NCBI GenBank assembly: GCA_041674805.1
Contig: JBAYVA010000002.1
Coordinates: 184,294-248,293, forward strand
Source of the DNA: Candidatus Magasanikiibacteriota bacterium
Lineage (GTDB): Bacteria; Patescibacteriota; Patescibacteriia; Magasanikbacterales; UBA922
DNA length: 64,000 bases
Direction: 5' to 3'
A program made the position numbers and the translations under genes. Below are positions 4,021-53,340 of the stretch, one piece after another. How positions within the stretch are numbered: position 1 is the stretch's first letter; each line of letters opens with the position of its first letter. The notes under the pieces are model-generated. The model searched no databases. It was given only the letters and a program-made list of their open reading frames with translations, and was not told the DNA's origin.

Positions 4021-4662
4021 ATGCCTGTCAGCAAAAAGAGCCCTAAAAAAGCTTCCAAAAAACAATCTAAAAGCAAAAAAATAGCCAAAAAAACTGTTGC
4101 TAAAAAGGTAAACAAAAATGATAAAGAAATGCAGGAAATAAAAAAAGCTGTGAAAGATTTACCAAATATTTTAGCTCAAGAATTCAAAAATATTTCTGTT
4201 GAAAAAACTTTGGATATAAAACCAGTATTGGTTGCTCGTGAAGAAAAATCAATTCCTTTCGATGTTGCCAAAACTCCAGAAATTTCTGAGGTTTATATTG
4301 CCCCCAAAAATAGTCGTTTGTGGCTTTGGTCTGCTGTTAGTTTGTTTACTGTTATTATTTTAGCTTTATGGGTTTTGAGTGTAAGTAATTTATTTTATAA
4401 TTCAAAAAATTCACCAGATAATCCTTTGGAATCTTTGAAAGGTAGCAAAGAAGAATTAAAAGGGATATTCAAAAATTTTGAAGATAGTAAACCTACTACT
4501 ACCATAAAAGATATTATTGGAGAAAGCATGTTTACTACTTCTACGGTGTCTAGTACATTGAGTACGACTACTGTAGATGTAAAAAAAATTGAAGAAGCTA
4601 TATCTGGTTTGTTTGTAAGTAGTAGTGATAATAATTTAATAGTAACAAATACAAAAGAATAA
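4021..4662 (+). CDS. Hypothetical membrane protein with a Lys-rich, histone-H1-like N-terminal tail and a single TM helix.
   Basis: Starts MPVSKKSPKKASKKQSKSKKIAKKTVAKK; the hydrophobic segment is LWLWSAVSLFTVIILALWVLSV. Confidence 0.5.
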   Translation: MPVSKKSPKKASKKQSKSKKIAKKTVAKKVNKNDKEMQEIKKAVKDLPNILAQEFKNISVEKTLDIKPVLVAREEKSIPFDVAKTPEISEVYIAPKNSRLWLWSAVSLFTVIILALWVLSVSNLFYNSKNSPDNPLESLKGSKEELKGIFKNFEDSKPTTTIKDIIGESMFTTSTVSSTLSTTTVDVKKIEEAISGLFVSSSDNNLIVTNTKE

Positions 4663-4684
4663 TAGTGAAATTAATTAAAAAAAT

Positions 4685-7192
4685 ATGGCACGTTTGAAAA
4701 GTATTATAAAATCAAAAAGTAGCACTGAAGAGAGTGCTGTGGAGGGAACTATTGTCGAAAAAATCGAACCTATCAATTTGGTGAAAGAAATGGAAACATC
4801 TTATTTGGATTATGCTATGAGTGTTATCGTTTCTCGTGCTTTGCCAGATGTGCGCGATGGTCTAAAACCTGTGCATCGTCGTATTTTGTATGCTATGTGG
4901 GAACTTGGTCTCAAACATAATTCTAAGTTTCGTAAATCAGCGCATGTGGTTGGTGGCGTAATGGCCAAATTCCATCCGCATGGTGATAGTGCTATTTATG
5001 ATTCGTTGGTACGTATGGCCCAAGATTTCAATATGCGTGAAATGTTGGTAAATGGTCAAGGTAACTTTGGTTCAATGGACGGAGATGGTGCTGCTGCTAT
5101 GCGTTATACAGAAGCCAAACTTCGTGCGATTGCTGAAGAATTGATTTTTGATATTGAAAAAAATACTGTAAATTTTTCACCTACTTATGATGGCTCTTAT
5201 AGAGAACCAAATGTTTTGCCTGCCAAATTACCAAATTTACTTTTGAATGGTAGTATGGGTATTGCGGTTGGTATGGCTACAAATATTCCTCCACATAATC
5301 TGACAGAACTTTGTGATGGTATTATGGCCTTGATTGAAAATCCAAAATTAGGAATTGAAGAATTAGGAAATTATATCAAAGGACCAGATTTCCCAACTGG
5401 TGGTATTATTTATAACAAAAAAGATATTGAAGTAGCTTATGCTACTGGACGTGGTGGTATTGTGATGCGTGCTAAAACAGATATTCAAGAATCTGAAAAA
5501 AATGATAAAATGCAAATTATCATTACCGAAGTTCCTTATCAAGTAAACAAAGCAACTTTGATAGAAAAAATTGCGAGCTTAGTACAAGAAAAGAAAATTG
5601 AAGGTATCAAAGATTTGCGTGATGAATCAAACAAAGAAGGTGTCAGAATTGTGATTGAGTTGAAAAAAGATTCTTATCCAAAAAAAGTTTTGAACAAACT
5701 TTTCAAATTAACAGAATTGCAAACAACTTTTCACGTTAATATGTTGGCTCTTGTAGATGGTATTCAGCCTCGTGTTTTGAATTTGAAAACTATTTTGGAA
5801 GAATACTTGAAACATCGTCAAATAGTTGTGCGTCGTCGTACTCAATTTGATTTGGATAAAGCTTTGGATAGAGCTCATATTTTGGAAGGTTTGAAAAAAG
5901 CTTTGGACAAAATTGATCTTATTATTGCTCTTATTCGAAAATCAAAAGACAAAGATGAAGCCAAAATAAATTTGATGGAAAAATTTTCTTTTACCGAAAA
6001 GCAAACTATGGCAATTTTGGAAATGAGATTGCAACAACTTGCTAATTTGGAACGTCAAAAAATAGAAGATGAACTTAAAGAAAAACAAAAATTGATTGCA
6101 GAATTAGAAGCTATTTTGAAGAGTGAAAAAAGAATTATGAGTATTATCAAATCTGAAGTAGAAACTATTAGACAAGTTTATGGTAATGCTAGACGTACTC
6201 AAATTGTTTCTCATGGTGTCAAAGAATTTAATATTGAAGATTTGGTACCAAATGAACCAACTCTTATTATCTCTACTCGTGATGGTTATATCAAACGTTT
6301 GCCTCCAGATACTTTCAAACAACAAAGCCGTGGTGGCAAAGGTGTGATTGGTTTGACCACCAAAGAAGAAGATGTTGTAGACAAAATTATTTCTACCAAT
6401 ACTCATGATAATATTTTGTTTTTTACTACACGTGGTCGTGTATTTCAATTAAGTGCTTATGATATACCTTTGACTGCTCGTACCTCAAAAGGACAAGCTT
6501 TGGTAAATTTCTTACAACTTGCACCAAATGAAAAAGTTTCTGTATTTTTGTCACTTGCTAATTTGAGTAGTTATGAATCATTAGTGATGGTGACAAGTAA
6601 AGGTAATATCAAAAAAACTAAGATTGAAGATTTTAAACACGTTCGCAAATCTGGTTTGATTGCTTTAAAACTAAAAGAAAATGATTTGTTGGAATGGGTA
6701 CAACCAACAGCTGGTAACAATGATGTGATGATTACTACTTCTATGGGTCAATCTATTAGATTTAGAGAAAAAGATGTTCGTCCAATGGGTCGTACTGCTT
6801 CCGGTGTACGTGCTATCAAATTAAAATCAACAGATGAAGTAGTAGGTATGAGTATTTTGGATAATAGTTTGGTAAAAATGAAAGTCTTGGAATTGTTGGT
6901 AGTCTCTGAAAATGGTTTAGGCAAGAAAACTAAAGTCAATGAATACAAAGTGCAAGGTCGTGGTGGTAGTGGTATCAAGACGATGGCTGTTACTTCCAAA
7001 ACCGGTAAAATTATTAGTAGTCAGATGGTAAATAGTACTGAAGAAAAAGATATTATGATAATTTCGGTCAAAGGACAAGTCATTCGTACTTCTCTTAAGA
7101 GTATTTCTACTCTTGGCAGAGCGACTCAAGGTGTTCGTATTATGCGTTTCAAGCAAGAAGGGGACAAAGTAGCAGCGATAGCATTTGTTTAA
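4685..7192 (+). CDS. gyrA: DNA gyrase subunit A.
   Basis: YAMSVIVSRALPDVRDGLKPVHRRILYAM and the catalytic-Tyr region; 835 aa with C-terminal beta-pinwheel repeats. Confidence 0.95.
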   Translation: MARLKSIIKSKSSTEESAVEGTIVEKIEPINLVKEMETSYLDYAMSVIVSRALPDVRDGLKPVHRRILYAMWELGLKHNSKFRKSAHVVGGVMAKFHPHGDSAIYDSLVRMAQDFNMREMLVNGQGNFGSMDGDGAAAMRYTEAKLRAIAEELIFDIEKNTVNFSPTYDGSYREPNVLPAKLPNLLLNGSMGIAVGMATNIPPHNLTELCDGIMALIENPKLGIEELGNYIKGPDFPTGGIIYNKKDIEVAYATGRGGIVMRAKTDIQESEKNDKMQIIITEVPYQVNKATLIEKIASLVQEKKIEGIKDLRDESNKEGVRIVIELKKDSYPKKVLNKLFKLTELQTTFHVNMLALVDGIQPRVLNLKTILEEYLKHRQIVVRRRTQFDLDKALDRAHILEGLKKALDKIDLIIALIRKSKDKDEAKINLMEKFSFTEKQTMAILEMRLQQLANLERQKIEDELKEKQKLIAELEAILKSEKRIMSIIKSEVETIRQVYGNARRTQIVSHGVKEFNIEDLVPNEPTLIISTRDGYIKRLPPDTFKQQSRGGKGVIGLTTKEEDVVDKIISTNTHDNILFFTTRGRVFQLSAYDIPLTARTSKGQALVNFLQLAPNEKVSVFLSLANLSSYESLVMVTSKGNIKKTKIEDFKHVRKSGLIALKLKENDLLEWVQPTAGNNDVMITTSMGQSIRFREKDVRPMGRTASGVRAIKLKSTDEVVGMSILDNSLVKMKVLELLVVSENGLGKKTKVNEYKVQGRGGSGIKTMAVTSKTGKIISSQMVNSTEEKDIMIISVKGQVIRTSLKSISTLGRATQGVRIMRFKQEGDKVAAIAFV

Positions 7193-11915: not shown

Positions 11916-11932
11916 CATATTTTTAAATTTAG

Positions 11933-12023
11933 CGGAGAGAGAGGGATTCGAACCCTCGGTCCCGATATGATCGGGACACCGCTTTTCGAGAGCGGCACCT
12001 TCAACCAACTCAGACATCTCTCC
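11933..12023 (-). tRNA. tRNA-Ser (anticodon CGA), a type II tRNA with a long variable arm.
   Basis: Reverse complement GGAGAGATGTCTGAGTTGGTTGAAGGTGCCGCTCTCGAAAAGCGGTGTCCCGATCATATCGGGACCGAGGGTTCGAATCCCTCTCTCTCCG. The acceptor GGAGAGA/TCTCTCC pairs fully, the anticodon loop is CTCGAAA, the variable stem is TCCCGAT/ATCGGGA and the T-arm is GAGGGTTCGAATCCCTC. Confidence 0.85.
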
Positions 12024-12041: not shown

Positions 12042-13295
12042 TTAGTTTGTATAATTAATTATTTTTTTTGATAAACTTAAATATATTAAAAACCAAAACA
12101 GAATGGCTAAATCGTTTTTTATATAAGGTGAATCTACTAAACCTGTTATAAGTAACATTAGTAAACTTAATAATAAAAAGTTATTATAAATATTTTTTTC
12201 TTTGATATTTTTGTGTAATATATATACTAAGATTATTATAAATGATAGCAAACCTATTAATCCAGTATTTACCCAAATTGTCAAAAATATGTTGTGAGGA
12301 TGATGGTATATTTCAATATATTCACCATTTACTTTTTGATGATATGTTTTTATTTCTTGGCTATAAGAACCTAAACCACTTCCTTTTATTGGATGATCTT
12401 TTAAATACTCTAAAGTTTCTTTCCAAATTCCAATTCTAATTTGTCCAGATCTGTCTTGTAGTATTAATTCTGTTTTTATATTTTGTAATTTTGGTAAATT
12501 AAAAATTAATAGTGATGAAAATATTGTTAATATTATGATAATCCAACGTGTTTTTTTATAGAATAGAAGAATTAAAAATATTGCACTGAAAATACTTACC
12601 AAAGCTCCTGTAGACTTGGCAAAGAATATAGCAGGTAATGATGTAATTATAAATAAAGTTCCTAATAAAAAAGGCCATGATTTCACTGAGTGGTTTTTTA
12701 GATTATATAGTGCTATTGCAAAAATTGGTGCCAAAAATAATCCAACTCCATTTGGAAATCCATACCATGCTGTTACTCTGTAAGTATTAAGATTTTCCCA
12801 AAAAGCATATGGTACAAAAAATCCTGTAAAATGTTGATAAATAGCAAATAAGGATGTGGCTAGTCCAGACATTAATAAACCATTTATTATATATTTTTTT
12901 ATATCTATAGATATATTTGTAATTATAAAAAATAGTATTATTGGTTCTAGATAAAAAGCTTTCCATTCACCTAATGCTTGTTTTGTGTTGTGGTTAAATA
13001 ATATAGATACAGTAGCAAAAAATAAAAATAATAAAATTGAGATGTATAATAATTTATTTTTTTTAAAATTTATTTTTAAATTATTTATAATTTCATTTTT
13101 ATATTTTATAAAACTAATTATAATTAGTATGATAATTTGTAATTCTAAAAAAGTTGTTGGAATTTCTAAAAAATTAAAACGTAATAGATAAGTAGGTAAA
13201 AACAAAGCTAATAAAAAAAATGAGTATTCAATTTTTTTGAAACTAATAATTGTAAAAATACTTAAATAAACAATTGTTAAAAACCACATTATCAT
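12042..13295 (-). CDS. O-antigen ligase / Wzy-like polysaccharide polymerase family membrane protein (paralog 1).
   Basis: 12 predicted TM segments; 'HPHNIFLTIWVNTGLIGL' and 'LVDSPYIKNDLAILFW' motifs are shared with the gene at 13732..15006. Confidence 0.65.
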   Translation of the reverse strand: MIMWFLTIVYLSIFTIISFKKIEYSFFLLALFLPTYLLRFNFLEIPTTFLELQIIILIIISFIKYKNEIINNLKINFKKNKLLYISILLFLFFATVSILFNHNTKQALGEWKAFYLEPIILFFIITNISIDIKKYIINGLLMSGLATSLFAIYQHFTGFFVPYAFWENLNTYRVTAWYGFPNGVGLFLAPIFAIALYNLKNHSVKSWPFLLGTLFIITSLPAIFFAKSTGALVSIFSAIFLILLFYKKTRWIIIILTIFSSLLIFNLPKLQNIKTELILQDRSGQIRIGIWKETLEYLKDHPIKGSGLGSYSQEIKTYHQKVNGEYIEIYHHPHNIFLTIWVNTGLIGLLSFIIILVYILHKNIKEKNIYNNFLLLSLLMLLITGLVDSPYIKNDLAILFWFLIYLSLSKKIINYTN

Positions 13296-13466: not shown

Positions 13467-13555
13467 AAATGAGAGAGGGATTCGAACCCTCGGTCCAGCT
13501 TGCGCAGAACAACTGATTTCGAGTCAGTCCCATTCGACCACTCTGGCATCTCTCC
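13467..13555 (-). tRNA. Second tRNA-Ser(CGA)-like gene whose 3' acceptor strand is replaced by unrelated sequence; possibly a pseudo-tRNA.
   Basis: Reverse complement GGAGAGATGCCAGAGTGGTCGAATGGGACTGACTCGAAATCAGTTGTTCTGCGCAAGCTGGACCGAGGGTTCGAATCCCTCTCTC, but then ATTTATACC follows instead of TCCG. The D-arm, anticodon arm (CTCGAAA) and T-arm are canonical. The last three acceptor pairs would be A-A, G-U and G-U. Confidence 0.55.
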
Positions 13556-18524: not shown

Positions 18525-19223
18525 ATGGTAGAGTTGATAACATTTAAGAAAAAATGTTTGGTGCCTAGCGAAAGAGTCTGTTTCAGACTCAAATTTTTGC
18601 GTGAACAAAAAAATATTTCTTTGTCTGAATTGGAAAACAGAACAAAAATTAGTAAGCTATATTTGGAAGCTATAGAACAATGTCGTTTTTCAGATTTACC
18701 ACAATCAAGTTTGTACAAAAAAAATTTTATCAAAAAATTTGTCAAAGCTTTGGGAGAAGATCCAAAATGTTTTGTAGATCAATTTGTCAAAGAAGAACTT
18801 ACTTATATACCACAAAATTCAAATACACCAAAACTAAAATATAATAAATATTATTTTAGTAATATGCCTAGTATTTTGCGTATTTCTACTTTTGTTTTAG
18901 TTATTGGTTCGTTGTTATTTTTTTTAGGATTTCATATCAAAAATATTTTGACCCCTCCTAATTTGATGGTTGTTTCTCCAGAAAATGGTTATATCAGCAA
19001 CAATAATTTTGTAGATGTGCATGGTAAGACTGACCCAGAAATTCAAATTACTATTAATAATCAAGCAGTAAAAAATGATTCAGATGGTAATTTTAATCAA
19101 AATATAAACCTTTTGCCTGGTATCAATACTTTTGTGATAAAGGCAAAAAATAAGCATGGTAAAACTACAGAAGAAATAAGAAATGTTATTTACAAAAACT
19201 CAGGATCTGTTTCTTTAAAGTAA
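18525..19223 (+). CDS. RodZ-like protein: an XRE-type HTH, a TM helix and a C-terminal beta domain.
   Basis: 'ISLSELENRTKISKLYLEAIEQ' HTH, TM 'ILRISTFVLVIGSLLFFLGF', then an extracytoplasmic domain. Confidence 0.55.
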   Translation: MVELITFKKKCLVPSERVCFRLKFLREQKNISLSELENRTKISKLYLEAIEQCRFSDLPQSSLYKKNFIKKFVKALGEDPKCFVDQFVKEELTYIPQNSNTPKLKYNKYYFSNMPSILRISTFVLVIGSLLFFLGFHIKNILTPPNLMVVSPENGYISNNNFVDVHGKTDPEIQITINNQAVKNDSDGNFNQNINLLPGINTFVIKAKNKHGKTTEEIRNVIYKNSGSVSLK

Positions 19224-19225
19224 AA

Positions 19226-19253
19226 ATAAAAACGACGTAATGTCGTTTTTTTG
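19226..19253. terminator. Bidirectional terminator.
   Basis: aaacgac-gtaat-gtcgtttttttg. Confidence 0.65.
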
Positions 19254-19259
19254 TTTGTA

Positions 19260-19601
19260 TTATTTTCTATTATAATCGTCTTCCAACCTCACAATATCAT
19301 TTTCATCAAATTCTCCAAAAGATATTTCCATGATTTCTAGTGTATCATTAGTTGTCATCATGCGATGTTTTGTTTCTTTTGGTATAGAATGTTCATCACC
19401 TTTTTTCACATCAATAGTCTCTTCACCAATAATGATTTGCCCATTTCCACTGACTACTCGCCAGAACTCATCACGCTTGTGATGATATTGTAGACTAAGT
19501 CGGGAGTTTGGTTTGACTGTAATTATTTTCACAGTCACTTGTTCATTGTGACAGAATTGTTCAAATTTGCCCCAAGGTCTTTCTTCGGAGTATTTGTCCA
19601 T
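19260..19601 (-). CDS. Cupin-domain protein (mannose-6-phosphate isomerase type II C-terminal-like).
   Basis: 'EERPWGKFEQF...VKIITVKPNSRLSLQYHHKRDEFWRVVSGNG'. The start is taken at MDKYSEERPWG, 1 nt after the HD gene's stop codon (19603..19605). Confidence 0.65.
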   Translation of the reverse strand: MDKYSEERPWGKFEQFCHNEQVTVKIITVKPNSRLSLQYHHKRDEFWRVVSGNGQIIIGEETIDVKKGDEHSIPKETKHRMMTTNDTLEIMEISFGEFDENDIVRLEDDYNRK

Positions 19602-19602
19602 A

Positions 19603-20214
19603 TTATCTATTTTTATTCGTATAAATATTCTCCCACCACTCAGATATTTTACCACTCATTATTTCTTCAGCTAATTTTTTGGCAGATGCCGTTTTGAGAC
19701 TTTTGTATTGGATGTTTTCAGTCTGACCTTCACCTTTACCATGAAGCCAGATTGGTGCTTCTTGGTTGCCTTGATGAGTATATTCTTTGAGTAGAAGTAT
19801 TTGATCTATCATGTCAGCATCTTTGGCGACTATGGCTTCTTTGCTTTCACGTTTTTCGAATTCTGTACTCATCTCAAATAAGTCTATGAAAGGTAATTCT
19901 CCAAGTTGATCTTTCATTATTTCTTCTTCAAAAATTTTGACATATTTTTTGTGAATATAGTTGTGGTCGCCACTTCTGATTTCACCCAAATCGTGAGTGA
20001 GTGCCATCATAGTTGTTTTATATGGGTCGACGTTTTCTAATTTGGCCAAGAACCAAGCGATCAGACCGACGCGGTAAGAGTGAGTAGTAATATTATCTGA
20101 CAAATCTTGAGTAAGCAATACTTGCTGATGCATGCGAGGAAGTTTGCGCATGGTGCCGACTTCGAATAAGAAGTTGGCGATTTTTTTGTAGGAGTTTGGG
20201 GAAGTGTTTTTCAT
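19603..20214 (-). CDS. HD-domain phosphohydrolase (YfbR-like 5'-deoxynucleotidase family).
   Basis: 'HSYRVGLIAWFLA', 'ALTHDLGEIRSGD' and 'AKDADMIDQILL' make up the H..HD..D motif set. Confidence 0.7.
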   Translation of the reverse strand: MKNTSPNSYKKIANFLFEVGTMRKLPRMHQQVLLTQDLSDNITTHSYRVGLIAWFLAKLENVDPYKTTMMALTHDLGEIRSGDHNYIHKKYVKIFEEEIMKDQLGELPFIDLFEMSTEFEKRESKEAIVAKDADMIDQILLLKEYTHQGNQEAPIWLHGKGEGQTENIQYKSLKTASAKKLAEEIMSGKISEWWENIYTNKNR

Positions 20215-20234
20215 ATTATATTTTATAAAATTTA

Positions 20235-21338
20235 TTATTTCATTTTGTCAGTGTACCAAACTATAACTGAGTGTTGTGTGTTTTGTTCATCGTCACAATC
20301 TTCTATAAGTAAGTCATATTTGTCTAGTGACGTTGTACTAATATGGAACATGTCATCTGAAGCAGGTATTATTTTCATTTTAAATGAAGTTAAATAATCA
20401 TAATTTATTTGTCCTGGTTCTTTGTATGTTATTTCTAAGTTAATTTTTTTCAATATATAGCATAGATTTGTTGGTGGTGGTAATTCACAATCTAATAAAA
20501 GATTATAACCTATTTCTATTCCTTGATTGGGACTTATGTAGTCTTCGTTTGAAAGTCTAGGCTTGATACTGCAAGGCCATCCATTTAATTTTGAAATAAA
20601 GTTAGCTGGTGTTTTGCCAGTATTTTTTATAGAAGCTTTTATAATTAGATAATCATTACCATTATTCATCATCACAACTCCGTTTCTTTCTTCAATATTT
20701 AAATATGGCCTGTCTAGTTTTTTTGCATTATAATATGTAAGTATAGAATAAAAACTAACTACCACTGTTAGTATACCTGTAATGGATATGCCAAAATTTT
20801 TTATTAATTTCCAATTAATAAAATGTTTTTTATTTTGCAATTTTTGTTGCATAATATTTTTATATTCAAAAGAAATTTTATTATATTCTTCCGTATCGTA
20901 AATACAAATACCTTCTTCGTGCCACAAAACAAATTCACTAATTCCAACATCCAACGCCATTTTACTACAGATTGTGCAATATGGTTGACCAGCAAAAGTT
21001 GGTTTTTCTTCTTTATCTAATCTAATAAAATATAGTCGTGAACCTAGAATCTTATTTGGATTATTTTTTAATGCATCTATTATAGCTCTTTGTTCAGCAT
21101 GTATACAACAAGTTTTGTCAGTAACTTTTTTATCATAACTTTCTTTGTCACAGTTACATCTTCTTTGATTTTCTAAATTTTTTGGAGGACTGTTAAAACC
21201 TGTAGCAATTATTTCATTATCTTTTACAATTATAGAACCACATTTGGATTTTTTGCAGGTTGAATTGAAGGCAATTTTAATTGCTTGATTCATGTAATCT
21301 TGTTCGTATTTTTCTTCAGTGTATTTTAGATGTTTCAT
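20235..21338 (-). CDS. Fusion protein: an N-terminal dCMP/cytidine-deaminase-like zinc domain, one TM helix, and a C-terminal domain of unknown function of about 170 aa.
   Basis: 'CCIHAEQRAI' (HAE) and 'PCTICSKMALDVGISEFV' (PCxxC) with an extra Cys cluster 'RRCNCDKESYDKKVTDKTCC', as in ComEB-type dCMP deaminases. The hydrophobic helix is 'FGISITGILTVVVSFYSILTYY'. Confidence 0.65.
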   Translation of the reverse strand: MKHLKYTEEKYEQDYMNQAIKIAFNSTCKKSKCGSIIVKDNEIIATGFNSPPKNLENQRRCNCDKESYDKKVTDKTCCIHAEQRAIIDALKNNPNKILGSRLYFIRLDKEEKPTFAGQPYCTICSKMALDVGISEFVLWHEEGICIYDTEEYNKISFEYKNIMQQKLQNKKHFINWKLIKNFGISITGILTVVVSFYSILTYYNAKKLDRPYLNIEERNGVVMMNNGNDYLIIKASIKNTGKTPANFISKLNGWPCSIKPRLSNEDYISPNQGIEIGYNLLLDCELPPPTNLCYILKKINLEITYKEPGQINYDYLTSFKMKIIPASDDMFHISTTSLDKYDLLIEDCDDEQNTQHSVIVWYTDKMK

Positions 21339-21498
21339 ATTTTTATAGTTATTTTAGTATATCATTTTACTCACAAAAAACAAGTTTGACACTGAATCTA
21401 ATAAAGTGTAAAATTAAGCACGGAGGAGAGGATTTTACCTCTTTTTTATTCTCAAATACAAGCCTGTCTTTTTTAAATTAAGTAATTTAAGTACTATT

Positions 21499-50131: not shown

Positions 50132-50203
50132 TTGATTATTTTTTTTGTTGGGGATAAGTAGTTATTGCGATTTTGTCGCAGTTGTGTTATTATAACTTTG
50201 ACT

Positions 50204-50581
50204 ATGAAAAGTATTATCACACAACTTACTCAAGCTGGCTACAAATGTACTAAGCCTAGAAAAGAGGTTTTGGATTTTTTGGAAAAAAATCATCATGCTA
50301 TTTCTGCTCAAGATTTGCACAAACAAATTTCCAAAGTAGATAGAGCCTCTGTTTATCGCACTTTAAATTTGTTGGAAGAATTGGGGATAGTCAATATTGA
50401 AAATTTTAATAATGAAAAATTGTATTGTTTGTCAGCTGAACCTCATCATCATATCATTTGCAAAAAATGTGGGTTTAGTGAGGAAGTACCTTGTACTTAT
50501 GAACATTATAATTTTAGTAATTTTAGTAATGTACAACATCAGATGACTTTGACCGGTGTTTGTAATAAATGTAATAAATAA
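50204..50581 (+). CDS. zur: Fur-family metalloregulator (Zur-like).
   Basis: 'KPRKEVLDFL' DNA-binding helix, 'HHHIIC..CG' and C-terminal 'CNKCNK' metal sites. The start is taken at the internal Met. Confidence 0.75.
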   Translation: MKSIITQLTQAGYKCTKPRKEVLDFLEKNHHAISAQDLHKQISKVDRASVYRTLNLLEELGIVNIENFNNEKLYCLSAEPHHHIICKKCGFSEEVPCTYEHYNFSNFSNVQHQMTLTGVCNKCNK

Positions 50582-50586
50582 AAAAT

Positions 50587-51510
50587 ATGTTGAAAAAAAT
50601 ATTTTTGTCTGTCGTTTTGTTTTTTGCTGTAACTCTTTTTTTAGGTGGTTGTAGTTTGCAAAATTCTTCTGAAGATACAAAAAATAGTGAACAAAAAATA
50701 AAAGTAGCTGCTAGTATTTTTCCTTTATATGATATAACAAAAGAAATTGCGGGAGATAAAATTGATGTTAGTTTGATTCTTCCTCCTGGCGCTAGCCCTC
50801 ACACTTTCGAAGTTTCAGCTTCTCAAATAAAAAAATTACAGGGTGTAAAATTGTTTTTTGTTATTGGTCAAAATTTGGATGCTTGGGTAGAAAATATTTC
50901 TTCAACAATCTCAGACTCGAAAACTGTTGATTTGAGTATGGTAGTAGAATTGCAACAACTAGATGAGAATAATCCAAATCATAGACCTGATGAAGAAGAT
51001 GAAGGTTTAGATCCTCACTATTGGCTAAGTCCAAAAAATATTTATACTGTATCTGAAGAAATTTTGAATCAATTGGTATTATTATCTCCAGAAAATGAAA
51101 GTTACTTTTTGGGTAATTATAATAATTTTGTAAATCAATTGCAGACCAAAGATGTCGAGTGGCAAGAAAAGATGAATAGTTTGACTAACAAAAATATTGT
51201 AGTATTTCATGATGCTTGGGGCTATTTTGCGGATCATTTTGGTTTGACTGTTGTTGGTACTTTTGAACCTTTTCCTGGACAAGAGCCTACTCCTCAATAT
51301 TTGAAAGAATTACAAGCTTCTGTCAAAGAATATAATATTAAAGCATTGTTTGCAGAACCACAGTTGTCTCAAGATTCTATCAAGACTTTAGCTAAAGATT
51401 TGGGAGTAGATATAAAAGTTTTGGATCCTACTGGTGGTGTAGAAGGACGTGCTAGTTATATTGAGATGATGGATTTTAATGTGAATAATGTATTTGATTT
51501 ATTAAAATAA
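50587..51510 (+). CDS. znuA: Metal (Zn/Mn) ABC-transporter substrate-binding lipoprotein, TroA/ZnuA family.
   Basis: Lipobox 'LGGCS', a His/Asp/Glu-rich loop 'NPNHRPDEEDEGLDPHYW' and the 'FHDAWGYF' motif. Confidence 0.7.
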   Translation: MLKKIFLSVVLFFAVTLFLGGCSLQNSSEDTKNSEQKIKVAASIFPLYDITKEIAGDKIDVSLILPPGASPHTFEVSASQIKKLQGVKLFFVIGQNLDAWVENISSTISDSKTVDLSMVVELQQLDENNPNHRPDEEDEGLDPHYWLSPKNIYTVSEEILNQLVLLSPENESYFLGNYNNFVNQLQTKDVEWQEKMNSLTNKNIVVFHDAWGYFADHFGLTVVGTFEPFPGQEPTPQYLKELQASVKEYNIKALFAEPQLSQDSIKTLAKDLGVDIKVLDPTGGVEGRASYIEMMDFNVNNVFDLLK

Positions 51511-51518
51511 TATTTGGA

Positions 51519-51612
51519 AGTTCCCCTCCTATTAGGAGGGGCTAGGGGAAGTATAGAGTAATATAAAACGTTTTATTCAAAGATGGACCCCCTCTAACTC
51601 CCCCTAATAAGG
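51519..51612. repeat. GC-rich palindromic interspersed element, copy B, in inverted orientation relative to copy A.
   Basis: Its reverse complement matches 36868-36966 over about 95 nt with about 12 substitutions. Confidence 0.8.
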
Positions 51613-51630
51613 AAAAAATAATAAAAAAGT

Positions 51631-52350
51631 ATGTTAATAAAAGTACAAAACCTATCCTACAAATTCAACGATTTCACAGCCTTGGAAAATGTGTCTTTTG
51701 AAATTGCCAAAGGAGAGATTGTGGCTATCATTGGTCCAAATGGCAGTGGTAAGACTACTTTGATAAAAAATATTATAGGAGTTTTGGAACCAACTGAAGG
51801 AAGTGTGATGATTGATGGCAAAAAACCAAAAGAAATAAGACACAAAATTGGTTATGTGCCACAAAAATTTGAATTCGATAAAACAATTCCTATCAGTGTT
51901 CATGAATTCATGAGTCTAGAAAAATGTGGCAAAAAAGGTCATGATGAAAAAAATATTATAGAAGCTCTAAGAGAAGTTGGTTTGGAAGATGTGGAAGAAA
52001 AACAATTGGGTAGTTTGTCTGGTGGTCAATTTCAACGAGTTATGATTGCTCGGGCACTGCTTCATGAAAAAGAAATCTTAATTTTTGATGAGCCTTCTAC
52101 GGGAATAGACATTGCTGGAGAAAAAACTATTTATGATTTGATAAAAAAAATAAATGAAGAACGTGGTACTACTTGTCTGATTGTTTCTCACGAACTTAAC
52201 GTTGTTAACAAATATACCAAAAAAGTAATTTGTATCAATAAAGAAATGGTTTGTTTTGGAGCACCAGAAATTGTGATTACCAAAGAGACTTTGGAGAAAC
52301 TGTATGGTAGTGATACTGGTTTGTTTCATGCGCATGATCATATTCATTAG
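51631..52350 (+). CDS. znuC: ABC-transporter ATP-binding protein (ZnuC-like).
   Basis: Walker A 'GPNGSGKTT', the signature 'LSGGQFQR' and Walker B 'ILIFDEP'. Confidence 0.8.
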   Translation: MLIKVQNLSYKFNDFTALENVSFEIAKGEIVAIIGPNGSGKTTLIKNIIGVLEPTEGSVMIDGKKPKEIRHKIGYVPQKFEFDKTIPISVHEFMSLEKCGKKGHDEKNIIEALREVGLEDVEEKQLGSLSGGQFQRVMIARALLHEKEILIFDEPSTGIDIAGEKTIYDLIKKINEERGTTCLIVSHELNVVNKYTKKVICINKEMVCFGAPEIVITKETLEKLYGSDTGLFHAHDHIH

Positions 52351-52357
52351 TATAGTA

Positions 52358-52387
52358 ATCCCGATTCGCTGAAAGACGAAGAGGGAT
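52358..52387. promoter_or_regulatory. Hairpin-family copy 1 (ATCCC-GA-TTCG-loop-CGAA-GA-GGGAT), 8 nt after the znuC stop codon.
   Basis: aATCCCgaTTCGctgaaagaCGAAgaGGGATc. Confidence 0.5.
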
Positions 52388-52477
52388 CTGTAGACCCTGT
52401 TAACTTTTATCTATTCAAAAACGTTTTTTAGAATCAATTTCAGGTTTATTAAATAAAAATATTTATACTTAAAAAAG

Positions 52478-52505
52478 ATCCCTCGTCGTATTCTCGACTC
52501 GGGAT
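52478..52505 (+). promoter_or_regulatory. Hairpin-family copy 2, immediately 5' of the znuB start.
   Basis: ATCCCtcGTCGtattctCGACtcGGGAT. Confidence 0.5.
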
Positions 52506-52506
52506 T

Positions 52507-53340
52507 GTGAGATACTCTATGCTAGAATTCCTACAATATCCCTTCATGATCAGAGCTCTGGTGAGTGGTATTTTTGTTTCCATTTTGCTTGGCTGGCTCG
52601 GTACTTTTGTGGTGACTCGCAAGATGAGTTTTATTGGCGACGGAATTGCTCATGCTTCTTTATCGGGTATTGCCTTGGCTATTTTGCTTGGTTGGGCACC
52701 GATTCCGACAGCTGTAATTTTGGCTAGTATCATCGCTGTAATTATTTATTTTTTGGAAAAGAAAACCAATATATCTAGTGATATGGCTATCGCTATTATG
52801 CTGACGACTGGCATGGCGATTGGTATTATTTTGCTAAGTTTTTATCAAGGTTATCAACCAGAACTAATGAGTTATTTGTTTGGAAATATTTTGGCTATCA
52901 ATAGTTATGATATGTTTTCTATTTTGATTATTGGTTTTTTTGTCTTGTTAATTTTATTTATTTTTTATCGCAAAATTTTGTTTAGTACTTTTGATCCAAT
53001 AGGTGCATATTTAGCTGGTATAAATATTTGGATTTTTGATTTGTTGCTTTATGTTTCGACTGCTGTAGTAATTATTCTTAGTATCAAGCTCGTTGGTGTG
53101 ATTCTGGTGAGTTCATTGCTTGTGACGCCTAGTGCGATTGCTAAAATGTTTGTCAGAAGTTTCAAAGCCTTTACTTGGCTGACTGTATTATTTTCTGTAC
53201 TTATAATTTCTTGTGGTTTGATTTTATCTTACTATCTTGATTTGCCATCTGGTGCGACGATTATTCTCACGGGAACTGGTTTGTTTATTTTGGCGTTTTT
53301 GTTTTCTCTTGCCTTAAAAAATAAAAGCATTAAAACATAG
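52507..53340 (+). CDS. znuB: Metal ABC-transporter permease (ZnuB-like).
   Basis: Eight TM helices typical of the ZnuB/TroCD fold; GTG start at 52507 or ATG at 52519. Confidence 0.75.
   Translation: MRYSMLEFLQYPFMIRALVSGIFVSILLGWLGTFVVTRKMSFIGDGIAHASLSGIALAILLGWAPIPTAVILASIIAVIIYFLEKKTNISSDMAIAIMLTTGMAIGIILLSFYQGYQPELMSYLFGNILAINSYDMFSILIIGFFVLLILFIFYRKILFSTFDPIGAYLAGINIWIFDLLLYVSTAVVIILSIKLVGVILVSSLLVTPSAIAKMFVRSFKAFTWLTVLFSVLIISCGLILSYYLDLPSGATIILTGTGLFILAFLFSLALKNKSIKT

Follow-up and report, generated by a model that had tools for sequence, protein, structure and literature searches.

Why should a zinc deaminase run on into a transmembrane helix and a further domain, and why should its gene stand at the head of a tight row shared with a phosphohydrolase and a cupin? 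The question is raised by a locus of Candidatus Magasanikbacteria, bacteria of the Candidate Phyla Radiation (CPR), which we analyzed within a stretch of 64,000 nucleotides (nt), hereafter the window (assembly GCA_041674805.1, contig JBAYVA010000002.1, positions 184,294-248,293, forward strand). Three minus-strand open reading frames (ORFs) follow one another here: gene 1 at 20235-21338 (367 amino acids, aa), gene 2 at 19603-20214 (203 aa), and gene 3 at 19260-19601 (113 aa). Read directly from the sequence, the gaps between them measure 20 nt and 1 nt (TAA-T-ATG), and a terminator scan found no minus-strand terminator-like site between the genes. It did find a bidirectional intrinsic terminator at 19228-19250, a hairpin with T-runs on either side that was called on both strands, is the only such minus-strand site past the trio, and is common to the trio and the convergent HTH_25 gene (18525-19223, plus strand). 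The tight packing and the terminator reported in an initial annotation of this DNA are thus confirmed, and because of the tight spacing the trio is likely to be co-transcribed.

The explanation we favor, with moderate confidence and on the strength of sequence comparisons, is that gene 1 encodes a lineage-specific, membrane-tethered deaminase of the deoxycytidylate type, and that this gene occupies a variable cassette slot ahead of core genes to which it is unrelated. The protein would insert with its N-terminus inside, so that the deaminase is kept on the cytoplasmic side of the membrane and an immunoglobulin (Ig)-like domain outside. The deaminase would turn a deoxycytidylate, that is deoxycytidine monophosphate (dCMP) or possibly dCDP or dCTP, into a uracil nucleotide for pyrimidine salvage. 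The 367-aa ORF is recovered identically in separately sourced assemblies (ENA, Logan, and an NCBI metagenome-assembled genome, MAG), and its product is identical to WC070_03375, an NCBI protein annotated in a MAG of Candidatus Magasanikbacteria.

The deaminase domain and its family

Residues 1-161 of gene 1 (20856-21338, minus strand) form a zinc deaminase domain, recognized by Pfam, PHROGs, a profile search against PDB sequences, and an AlphaFold2 (AF2) model compared by Foldseek. The Pfam family PF00383 (dCMP_cyt_deam_1) matches residues 12-138 with 48.5 bits against a cut-off of 25. In an alignment of 16 family sequences, neither H80-A-E82 nor P119-Y-C121-T-I-C124, the two catalytic motifs, shows any variation, and the additional cysteines C28, C61, C77, and C78 are likewise invariant, with C33 nearly so; gene 1 keeps all 27 residues that are invariant in the family. 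An N-terminal zinc deaminase with HAE...PCxxC and an extra cysteine cluster, as initially annotated, is therefore borne out. In profile hidden Markov model (HMM) alignments, two of these cysteines, C28 and C61, correspond to ones that the enzymes of S-TIM5, S. mutans, and T4 also conserve, whereas C33, C77, and C78 are additions of this family relative to known dCMP deaminases. A second, structural zinc is bound by dCMP deaminases (PMC4683357).

In both sequence and fold, dCMP deaminases are the nearest relatives of this domain. It matches phrog_174, 'dCMP deaminase', at 76.7 bits, and four of the five matches in the PDB profile search, the top four, are dCMP deaminases (4p9c, 2hvv, 2w4l, 1vq2), the fifth being a weak match to TadA (E 0.006). 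The AF2 model of the domain has a predicted local distance difference test score (pLDDT) of 90.4. Its best 14 PDB matches in Foldseek are all dCMP deaminases, with template-modeling scores (TM-scores) of 0.5-0.7, and include the enzymes of S-TIM5, S. mutans, and T4 as well as human DCTD and PBCV-1 bi-DCD. Three motifs of dCMP deaminases, HxE, PCxxC, and the allosteric G(Y/W)N(A/G), are defined in PMC12088426. Gene 1 shares HxE and PCxxC with the zinc dCMP deaminases (DCTD/ComEB, T4 Cd, S-TIM5, S. mutans, PBCV-1 bi-DCD), but identity to the known enzymes is just 21-28%. The place of the allosteric motif is taken by G47-F48-N49-S50; across the family this tetrapeptide is G(F/Y)NS or G(F/H)NG. 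Judged by these comparisons, the domain appears dCMP-deaminase-like and would fall within that clade, as a distinct subfamily because the threshold of the curated ComEB model is missed and the allosteric motif reads GFNS.

Known dCMP deaminases are soluble hexamers, whereas the deaminase of gene 1 continues into a transmembrane helix and an ectodomain; such anchoring speaks against its existing as a free, soluble hexamer. A certain likeness exists to Bacillus subtilis ComEB, encoded in the comE DNA-uptake operon, which is also a dCMP-deaminase-family protein genetically tied to membrane machinery and may serve as a conceptual precedent for pyrimidine deamination placed near the site of uptake. 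Unlike gene 1, ComEB is a soluble protein, and transformation does not require it (bioRxiv 10.1101/2020.12.30.424838); no com genes adjoin gene 1.

We surveyed one genome per GTDB species and examined the loci of the best 80 of 352 genomes with a relative of the deaminase. Relatives occur in at least 352 species genomes, and the best 80, at 59-70% identity, come nearly all from CPR bacteria or DPANN archaea: 46 are labeled DPANN or unclassified archaea and 24 CPR/Patescibacteria, the remainder being three bins labeled Methanosarcinales and seven unclassified or other bacterial bins. Of these 80 loci, 79 have a deaminase frame that closes within about 25 residues past the domain, and the sole C-terminal extension, in locus L057, is unrelated to that of gene 1. 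The transmembrane module is absent from all 80. It is likewise found in none of 24 database homologues. Homologues at 34-67% identity align only to the N-terminal 38-54% of gene 1. The architecture is thus as unusual as had been supposed, and the fusion of deaminase, transmembrane helix, and Ig-like domain is a singleton, seen only in this organism. Some deaminases of the family are elsewhere fused to other partners, namely GNAT, NUDIX (in P0006), PAP2 (in P0009), ADP-ribosylglycohydrolase, HNH, a borderline ASCH domain, and N-terminal transmembrane segments. A MazG/PRA-PH label, considered for the C-terminal extension of about 95 aa in P0002 and P0007, found no support in searches of Pfam, NCBIfam, and PDB sequences and was dropped.

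Among the genes around the deaminase, no family appears in more than 6 of the 80 loci. The deaminase family is also carried on 10 IMG/VR contigs of 30-435 kb and on phage-like contigs made up of many small, unannotated, co-oriented ORFs. The literature yielded nothing specific on a dCMP deaminase family of CPR or DPANN organisms, nor on a membrane-bound dCMP deaminase.

One peculiarity of the surveyed loci concerns the genetic code. Translated with the standard code, the ORF of the deaminase meets an in-frame stop at about residues 45-48 in L038, L055, L068, L075, and L077, from bins of Gracilibacteria, SR1, Absconditabacterales, and similar groups. The stops fall at the conserved G45 and G47, a pattern that recoding of UGA as glycine (code 25) would produce. 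The deaminase ORFs of L086 and L092 are interrupted as well, at other positions.

The transmembrane helix, the C-terminal module, and their junction with the deaminase

A hydropathy scan places a single transmembrane helix at aa 181-202 (20733-20798, minus strand), where the AF2 model shows part of a long helix. Its flanks carry charges of +5/-0 on the N-side and +3/-3 on the C-side. From these charges we predict that the deaminase is cytoplasmic and the Ig-like domain outside. Gene 1 has no signal peptide, which would agree with an N-in topology, and two or four cysteines follow the helix in eight of nine members of the C-terminal family, which would agree with an outside location. The remaining residues, 203-367 (about 165 aa; 20238-20732, minus strand), are modeled as an Ig-like beta-sandwich following the long helix, with a mean pLDDT of 78.6 and a predicted TM-score (pTM) of 0.69 for the C-terminal part. 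The single helix and the unannotated C-terminal domain of about 170 aa that had first been noticed are both upheld, and structure and topology prediction add a beta-sandwich and a cytoplasmic N-terminus. That this region might be a low-complexity linker carried by ordinary ComEB proteins is contradicted by the modeled fold and by its membership in a rare family of its own.

This predicted outward-facing module belongs to a family without annotation. An exhaustive HMMER search among 1.84 billion representatives returned eight relatives, and its profile found only two members in an index of 5.8 billion proteins, both already known from the exhaustive search. The family is marked by the motifs RPYL, IKNxGxLPA (IKNxGxxPA), and YIxPGQ (YIxPxQ), a conserved cysteine pair, and a C-terminal WYxxxMK. 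The module stands alone in P0026, P0028, and P0031 and trails different N-terminal segments in other members. Structural matches are generic Ig-like ones, and BFVD yields weak matches, one a transmembrane protein from a phage and others DUF5067/DUF4352 proteins. With DUF4352, DUF5067, and CARDB proteins it shares an order in which a single transmembrane helix precedes a beta-sandwich whose strand motif is 'xIxNxGxxP', but the matches in sequence and fold are weak, none being significant, and the module differs from these proteins in its own motifs RPYL, YIxPxQ, and WYxxxMK and in its extreme rarity. One of its relatives, the stand-alone transmembrane/Ig-like member P0027 (loci L011-L013), has a DHH phosphoesterase gene on one side and a NUDIX hydrolase gene on the other; one variant also contains an inserted GIY-YIG gene.

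The junction between the two halves looks like a former gene boundary. Stand-alone deaminases of the family finish at ...YNxLSFxYxx, and two codons past this end gene 1 has an internal in-frame ATG (M163; 20850-20852, minus strand), continuing as I-M163-QQKLQNKKHF... through a lysine-rich stretch into the transmembrane helix; a peptide that spans the junction is ISFEYKNIMQQK. From M163 onward the sequence resembles the N-terminus of stand-alone P0026 (MNKKTKENIKD..., again leading into a transmembrane helix), and the 12 nt ahead of the M163 ATG resemble the 12 nt ahead of the start of gene 1 (direct repeat D2). M163 thus probably marks a former gene boundary, and because the junction has this appearance, the most likely origin of the fusion is that two neighboring genes lost the stop codon separating them.

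These same features could be taken to mean that the fusion is neutral or effectively still two proteins, the result of a recent stop loss or a population polymorphism, with the transmembrane/Ig-like part made from M163 and the tethering without a selected role. We regard this as rather unlikely. It draws on the position of the junction exactly at the end point of the stand-alone deaminases, with an in-frame ATG, a P0026-like N-terminus, and a start-like leader; on the singleton status of the fusion; and on start regions at the locus that show no Shine-Dalgarno-like sequence, so that translation may also initiate internally. Against it stand the identical ORF in several assemblies, the retention of all family-conserved residues in both halves, the failure to find an unfused adjacent pair in any relative, and a codon composition typical of the host, with a GC content at third codon positions (GC3) of 0.177 compared with a window mean of 0.224. 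By the same measure, a horizontal origin of gene 1 was considered on the basis of composition and rejected.

The slot between recA and the HD gene

The region 5' of gene 1 (21341-21456, minus strand), which bears promoter-like sites and is divergent from recA, is conserved between strains independently of gene 1. In a blastn comparison, positions 3-118 of locus L110 match window 21456-21341 with 85% identity, and L110 matches again at window 20223-18658, with 80% identity, over the HD gene, the cupin gene, the terminator, and the HTH_25 gene; across gene 1 it shows no match. An extended -10-like element, TGATATACT (TGGTATACT), lies at 21356-21364. In an alignment of five genomes (A3), conservation runs through TGGTATACTAAAAT and then gives way to divergence, about where transcription would start, and homology to some relatives ends a few bases past the extended -10. 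Homology with the sister genomes resumes 6-9 nt ahead of the ATG of the HD gene.

A metagenome scan with the HD gene gave 31 loci, among them six sister loci (L113-L116, L134, L136). These six keep the order recA, slot, HD, further genes, HTH_25, and SpoIID, and five of the six show recA, at 93-95% identity. Between recA and HD, behind a single conserved promoter, five unrelated genes are found. In the window the slot (20224-21340) holds the 367-aa fusion, with the cupin downstream of HD; in L114, and also in L110-L112, it holds a 166-aa transmembrane/beta protein, again with the cupin downstream. L113 has a 292-aa unknown protein in the slot and no cupin. L115 and L116 have a HAD hydrolase, with an extra P-loop-like gene and then the cupin downstream of HD, and L136 has a 177-aa unknown protein, the locus ending inside the HD gene. 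L134 begins inside the HD gene and has TrmB and a phosphoglucose/phosphomannose isomerase (PGI/PMI) of the SIS type downstream, with no cupin. In the loci with the closest HD gene (92% identity), the order is 166-aa transmembrane/beta protein, HD, cupin, and the convergent HTH_25 gene. The HD-cupin junction with its 1-nt gap is kept in L110-L112 and L114, whereas the cupin is absent from two of the six sister loci. Gene 1, then, lies in a strain-variable cassette slot, the HD gene is core, and the cupin is optional.

The 166-aa sister protein and the C-terminal module of gene 1 are analogous in architecture. Homology between the two is not shown: hhalign gave a probability of 0.4%, with only an 'ItNkGrrP'-type strand in common. 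The borders of the cassette were also searched for repeats resembling those of integrons or att sites, and only short AT-rich matches turned up, as expected by chance. Several other features of these loci deserve mention. L115 carries a phage Gp30.3-like gene (4285-4755, minus strand; PF08010, 154 bits) between the cupin and HTH_25 genes, which adds to the evidence for acquisition of foreign DNA in this region. The P-loop-like protein between HD and cupin in L115 (2908-3474) and L116 (3542-4108) has 188 aa, belongs to no Pfam family, and gives a weak 18-bit ThsB/TIR-like match in PADLOC. In the leader of recA (about 21420-21460, plus strand), between the promoter-like site of recA (TTGACA at 21386) and its start (21499), alignment A3 shows a hairpin followed by a T-run (AGAGGATTTTACCTCTTTTTT on the plus strand), conserved in all five relatives, which could be a leader attenuator or a regulatory element.

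Gene 2 (minus strand), a core gene of Patescibacteria, encodes a metal-dependent phosphohydrolase of the HD_3 family. Pfam assigns it to HD_3 with 71.1 bits and to the YfbR-like family with 37.5 bits (cut-off 25.9), each above its threshold, and the H...HD...D metal motif that it shares with the HD_3 phosphohydrolases E. coli YfbR, human HDDC2, and AF1432 is present as H45, H74-D75, and D134. Gene 2 stays below the curated 5'-deoxynucleotidase equivalog NF003009 (29.8 bits against 122). Its nearest solved structures are AF1432 and HDDC2, and YfbR is not among its PDB sequence matches at E <0.01. The residue after the conserved arginine, presumably a substrate-stacking tryptophan in YfbR, is methionine in gene 2 (R27-M28). 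The initial annotation of a YfbR-type HD 5'-deoxynucleotidase thus stands as regards domain and metal motif; the narrower enzyme assignment is not supported. There are 732 homologues of gene 2; the best 120 of these are 67-92% identical, and those with a named source are mostly from Patescibacteria. The GC3 of the HD gene, 0.373, is the highest of the 45 ORFs in the window (mean 0.224, z = 2.5).

Characterized members of the HD_3/YfbR-like family, such as YfbR and HDDC2, are nucleotidases. It had been proposed that the deaminase and gene 2 act in sequence. In this coupled salvage operon the tethered deaminase and an HD 5'-nucleotidase would process imported deoxycytidylates, either from dCMP through dUMP to deoxyuridine or from dCMP to deoxycytidine, and would be co-transcribed for their common pathway. 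The tight gene spacing, a single terminator for all three genes, the family membership of gene 2, the fusion of family deaminases to the other phosphohydrolases NUDIX and PAP2, and the NUDIX gene following P0027 all speak for such coupling. The gene distribution, however, does not: relatives of HD lie within 6 kb of the deaminase in 2 of the 80 deaminase loci, as do relatives of the cupin in 2 of 80, and neither is adjacent in any. Conversely, a deaminase accompanies HD in none of the 31 HD loci. The 25 HD loci beyond the sisters, mostly at 58-77% identity, lack all of these neighbors, and HD orthologues on three long contigs, also without the deaminase, adjoin grpE/dnaK, Fic, or an M48 peptidase. 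In the sister genomes, HD persists beneath unrelated upstream genes. HD is therefore retained irrespective of the deaminase in the surveyed loci, which points against coupling, as do the missed 5'-deoxynucleotidase threshold and the lack of a YfbR match, and we consider a shared pathway, by either route, improbable.

Gene 3 (minus strand), counted here from its ATG (a mechanical ORF list extends the start to a GTG at 19655), had been left without a function. It is, by sequence, evidently a phosphomannose-isomerase-type sugar enzyme, a stand-alone cupin corresponding to the C-terminal domain of type II phosphomannose isomerases. It scores 88.7 bits against PF01050 (MannoseP_isomer; cut-off 23.6), carries the RPWG motif and the His/Glu metal motifs of cupins, and has as its nearest solved relative 7zvm, deposited as 'mannose-6-phosphate isomerase'. 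These features liken it to the C-terminal cupin of GMP/PMI enzymes. Those enzymes carry in addition an N-terminal mannose-1-phosphate guanylyltransferase (nucleotidyltransferase) domain, which gene 3, with its 113 aa, does not have, and it covers only positions 361-467 of TIGR01479 (GMP_PMI; 85.2 bits against a cut-off of 372.95). In L134, the place of the cupin is taken by a TrmB-family sugar regulator and the SIS-type isomerase (452-2476), which may be a non-orthologous replacement. This substitution and the Wzy/flippase genes nearby would fit a part for the cupin in sugar-phosphate metabolism for envelope glycans. Its position beside HD, together with the HAD gene of L115 and L116 and the SIS isomerase of L134, suggests that the HD protein, too, may act on sugar phosphates instead of nucleotides.

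With five unrelated genes occupying the slot after one and the same conserved promoter, the trio cannot be called a conserved module, and the functional unit initially annotated dissolves with the failure of the three genes to co-occur in other genomes. The locus is a composite transcription unit of three independent parts: the promoter with its variable slot, HD, and the cupin. The conserved promoter, divergent from recA, would drive whichever gene occupies the slot; the HD_3 phosphohydrolase would follow as the second gene and the cupin, which only some relatives have, as the last. The likely co-transcription would reflect the landing site of a cassette and not a common pathway.

Nucleotide depletion, surroundings, and implications

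The initial annotation had also likened the pair of deaminase and hydrolase to antiviral modules that deplete the nucleotide pool, a comparison that finds little in its favor. Gene 1 and the AvcD/DcdV proteins have a domain of the same deaminase superfamily, and the corresponding models match at the level of this domain only: NF041025, for anti-phage dCTP deaminase, at 34.9 bits against a cut-off of 400, the better of two stretches aligning residues 14-69 with profile positions 222-279 of 437, and the PADLOC dCTPase model at 37.6 bits. Gene 1 begins directly with its deaminase domain, and the N-terminal segment of NF041025 is absent; it thus lacks the N-terminal kinase-like domain of AvcD/DcdV, which in turn have no counterpart to its transmembrane helix and ectodomain. 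Contrary to what would be expected of AvcD/DcdV, gene 1 lies outside any defense neighborhood.

A variant that would do justice to the ectodomain is a single-chain transmembrane sensor-effector, in which the Ig-like domain senses phage attachment, envelope damage, or a host-surface cue and switches the cytoplasmic deaminase, which would then deplete dCTP or dCMP, the recA-HD slot being a hotspot for accessory, conflict, and defense cassettes. If true, an episymbiont would here manipulate nucleotide pools through an architecture not described before. The slot does differ between sister strains, as is typical of accessory and defense loci. The rare C-terminal module is paired with varied cytoplasmic N-terminal segments elsewhere, its stand-alone member P0026 lies near an RHS protein and precedes a PemK toxin gene by two genes, and there are the weak domain-level matches just described. 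Yet the anti-phage score is far below its cut-off, none of the slot occupants matches PADLOC or PHROGs, one of them is a plain HAD hydrolase, and the 64-kb surroundings contain no defense genes. The closest relatives of the deaminase are, moreover, ordinary proteins in housekeeping contexts, with no C-terminal extension. Such a system strikes us as highly improbable. As an operon or as a defense system the trio is ordinary, its genes being neighbors by accident of insertion.

The reading we prefer, that of a lineage-specific tethered deoxycytidylate-type deaminase in a cassette slot, has a number of points weighing against it as well. Gene 1 does not reach the curated ComEB equivalog TIGR02571, scoring 37.9 bits against a cut-off of 219.45, and in GFNS only G and N fit the allosteric motif of dCMP deaminases, F and S not strictly doing so. 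Relatives in the PF00383 family may prefer dCTP, 5-methyl-dCTP, or single-stranded DNA (ssDNA) (PMC12088426; bioRxiv 10.1101/2024.12.05.627091). The phosphorylation state of the substrate is not readable from the sequence of gene 1, and a deoxycytidylate activity is suggested by homology only. Searches with ThyA and ThyX queries, of uncertain sensitivity for ThyX, placed a thymidylate synthase close to the deaminase in only 2 of 95 related loci, and none in the window; a link to dTMP synthesis therefore lacks support from gene context. The patchy spread of the family, its high identity between bacteria and archaea, its carriage by phages, its varied fusions, and the variable slot look more like an accessory or conflict gene than a housekeeping one. 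Three members of the C-terminal family were examined for their gene context, and in two of them, gene 1 and P0027, the next gene downstream encodes a hydrolase of the nucleotide type (HD or NUDIX), which hints at a link. Finally, as regards the origin by stop loss, no relative was found in which both genes are adjacent and unfused.

The surroundings are those of an ordinary CPR chromosome, with housekeeping genes throughout: gyrA, rpsA, recA, ftsK, rpoB/C, yebC, ruvC, gap, pgk, an aminoacyl-tRNA synthetase, and a DEAD helicase, together with Fur-ZnuABC, SpoIID, and envelope polysaccharide genes. Nearest to the trio are recA, ftsK, rpoBC, SpoIID, and envelope polysaccharide genes. No recognizable defense gene, thymidylate synthase, or second deaminase was found in the 64-kb window, and no defense island surrounds the locus there. 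At 50165-53340, genes of the ZnuA, ABC ATPase, and ABC-3 permease types come after one for a regulator of the Fur family, an arrangement that resembles a zinc or metal uptake operon. The Wzy_C-type gene at 12042-13295 has the lowest GC content in the window (21.8%; GC3 0.124) and is bracketed by two different tRNA genes, each called tRNA-Ser(CGA), at 11932-12023 and 13467-13555.

What the locus means for the biology of these organisms can be put at three levels. Beside recA, a promoter-proximal cassette slot swaps genes between sister CPR strains. At the level of the family, a cysteine-rich group of dCMP-deaminase-like proteins, 59-70% identical, spans CPR bacteria, DPANN archaea, and large phages, and the question of its substrate matters, as related phage enzymes prefer dCTP, 5-methyl-dCTP, or ssDNA. 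As for the fusion itself, if it is functional, it would be the first enzyme of the dCMP deaminase family shown to be membrane-anchored with an ectodomain, and in an organism that must scavenge host nucleotides it would suggest that pyrimidine salvage is coupled spatially to the cell surface.

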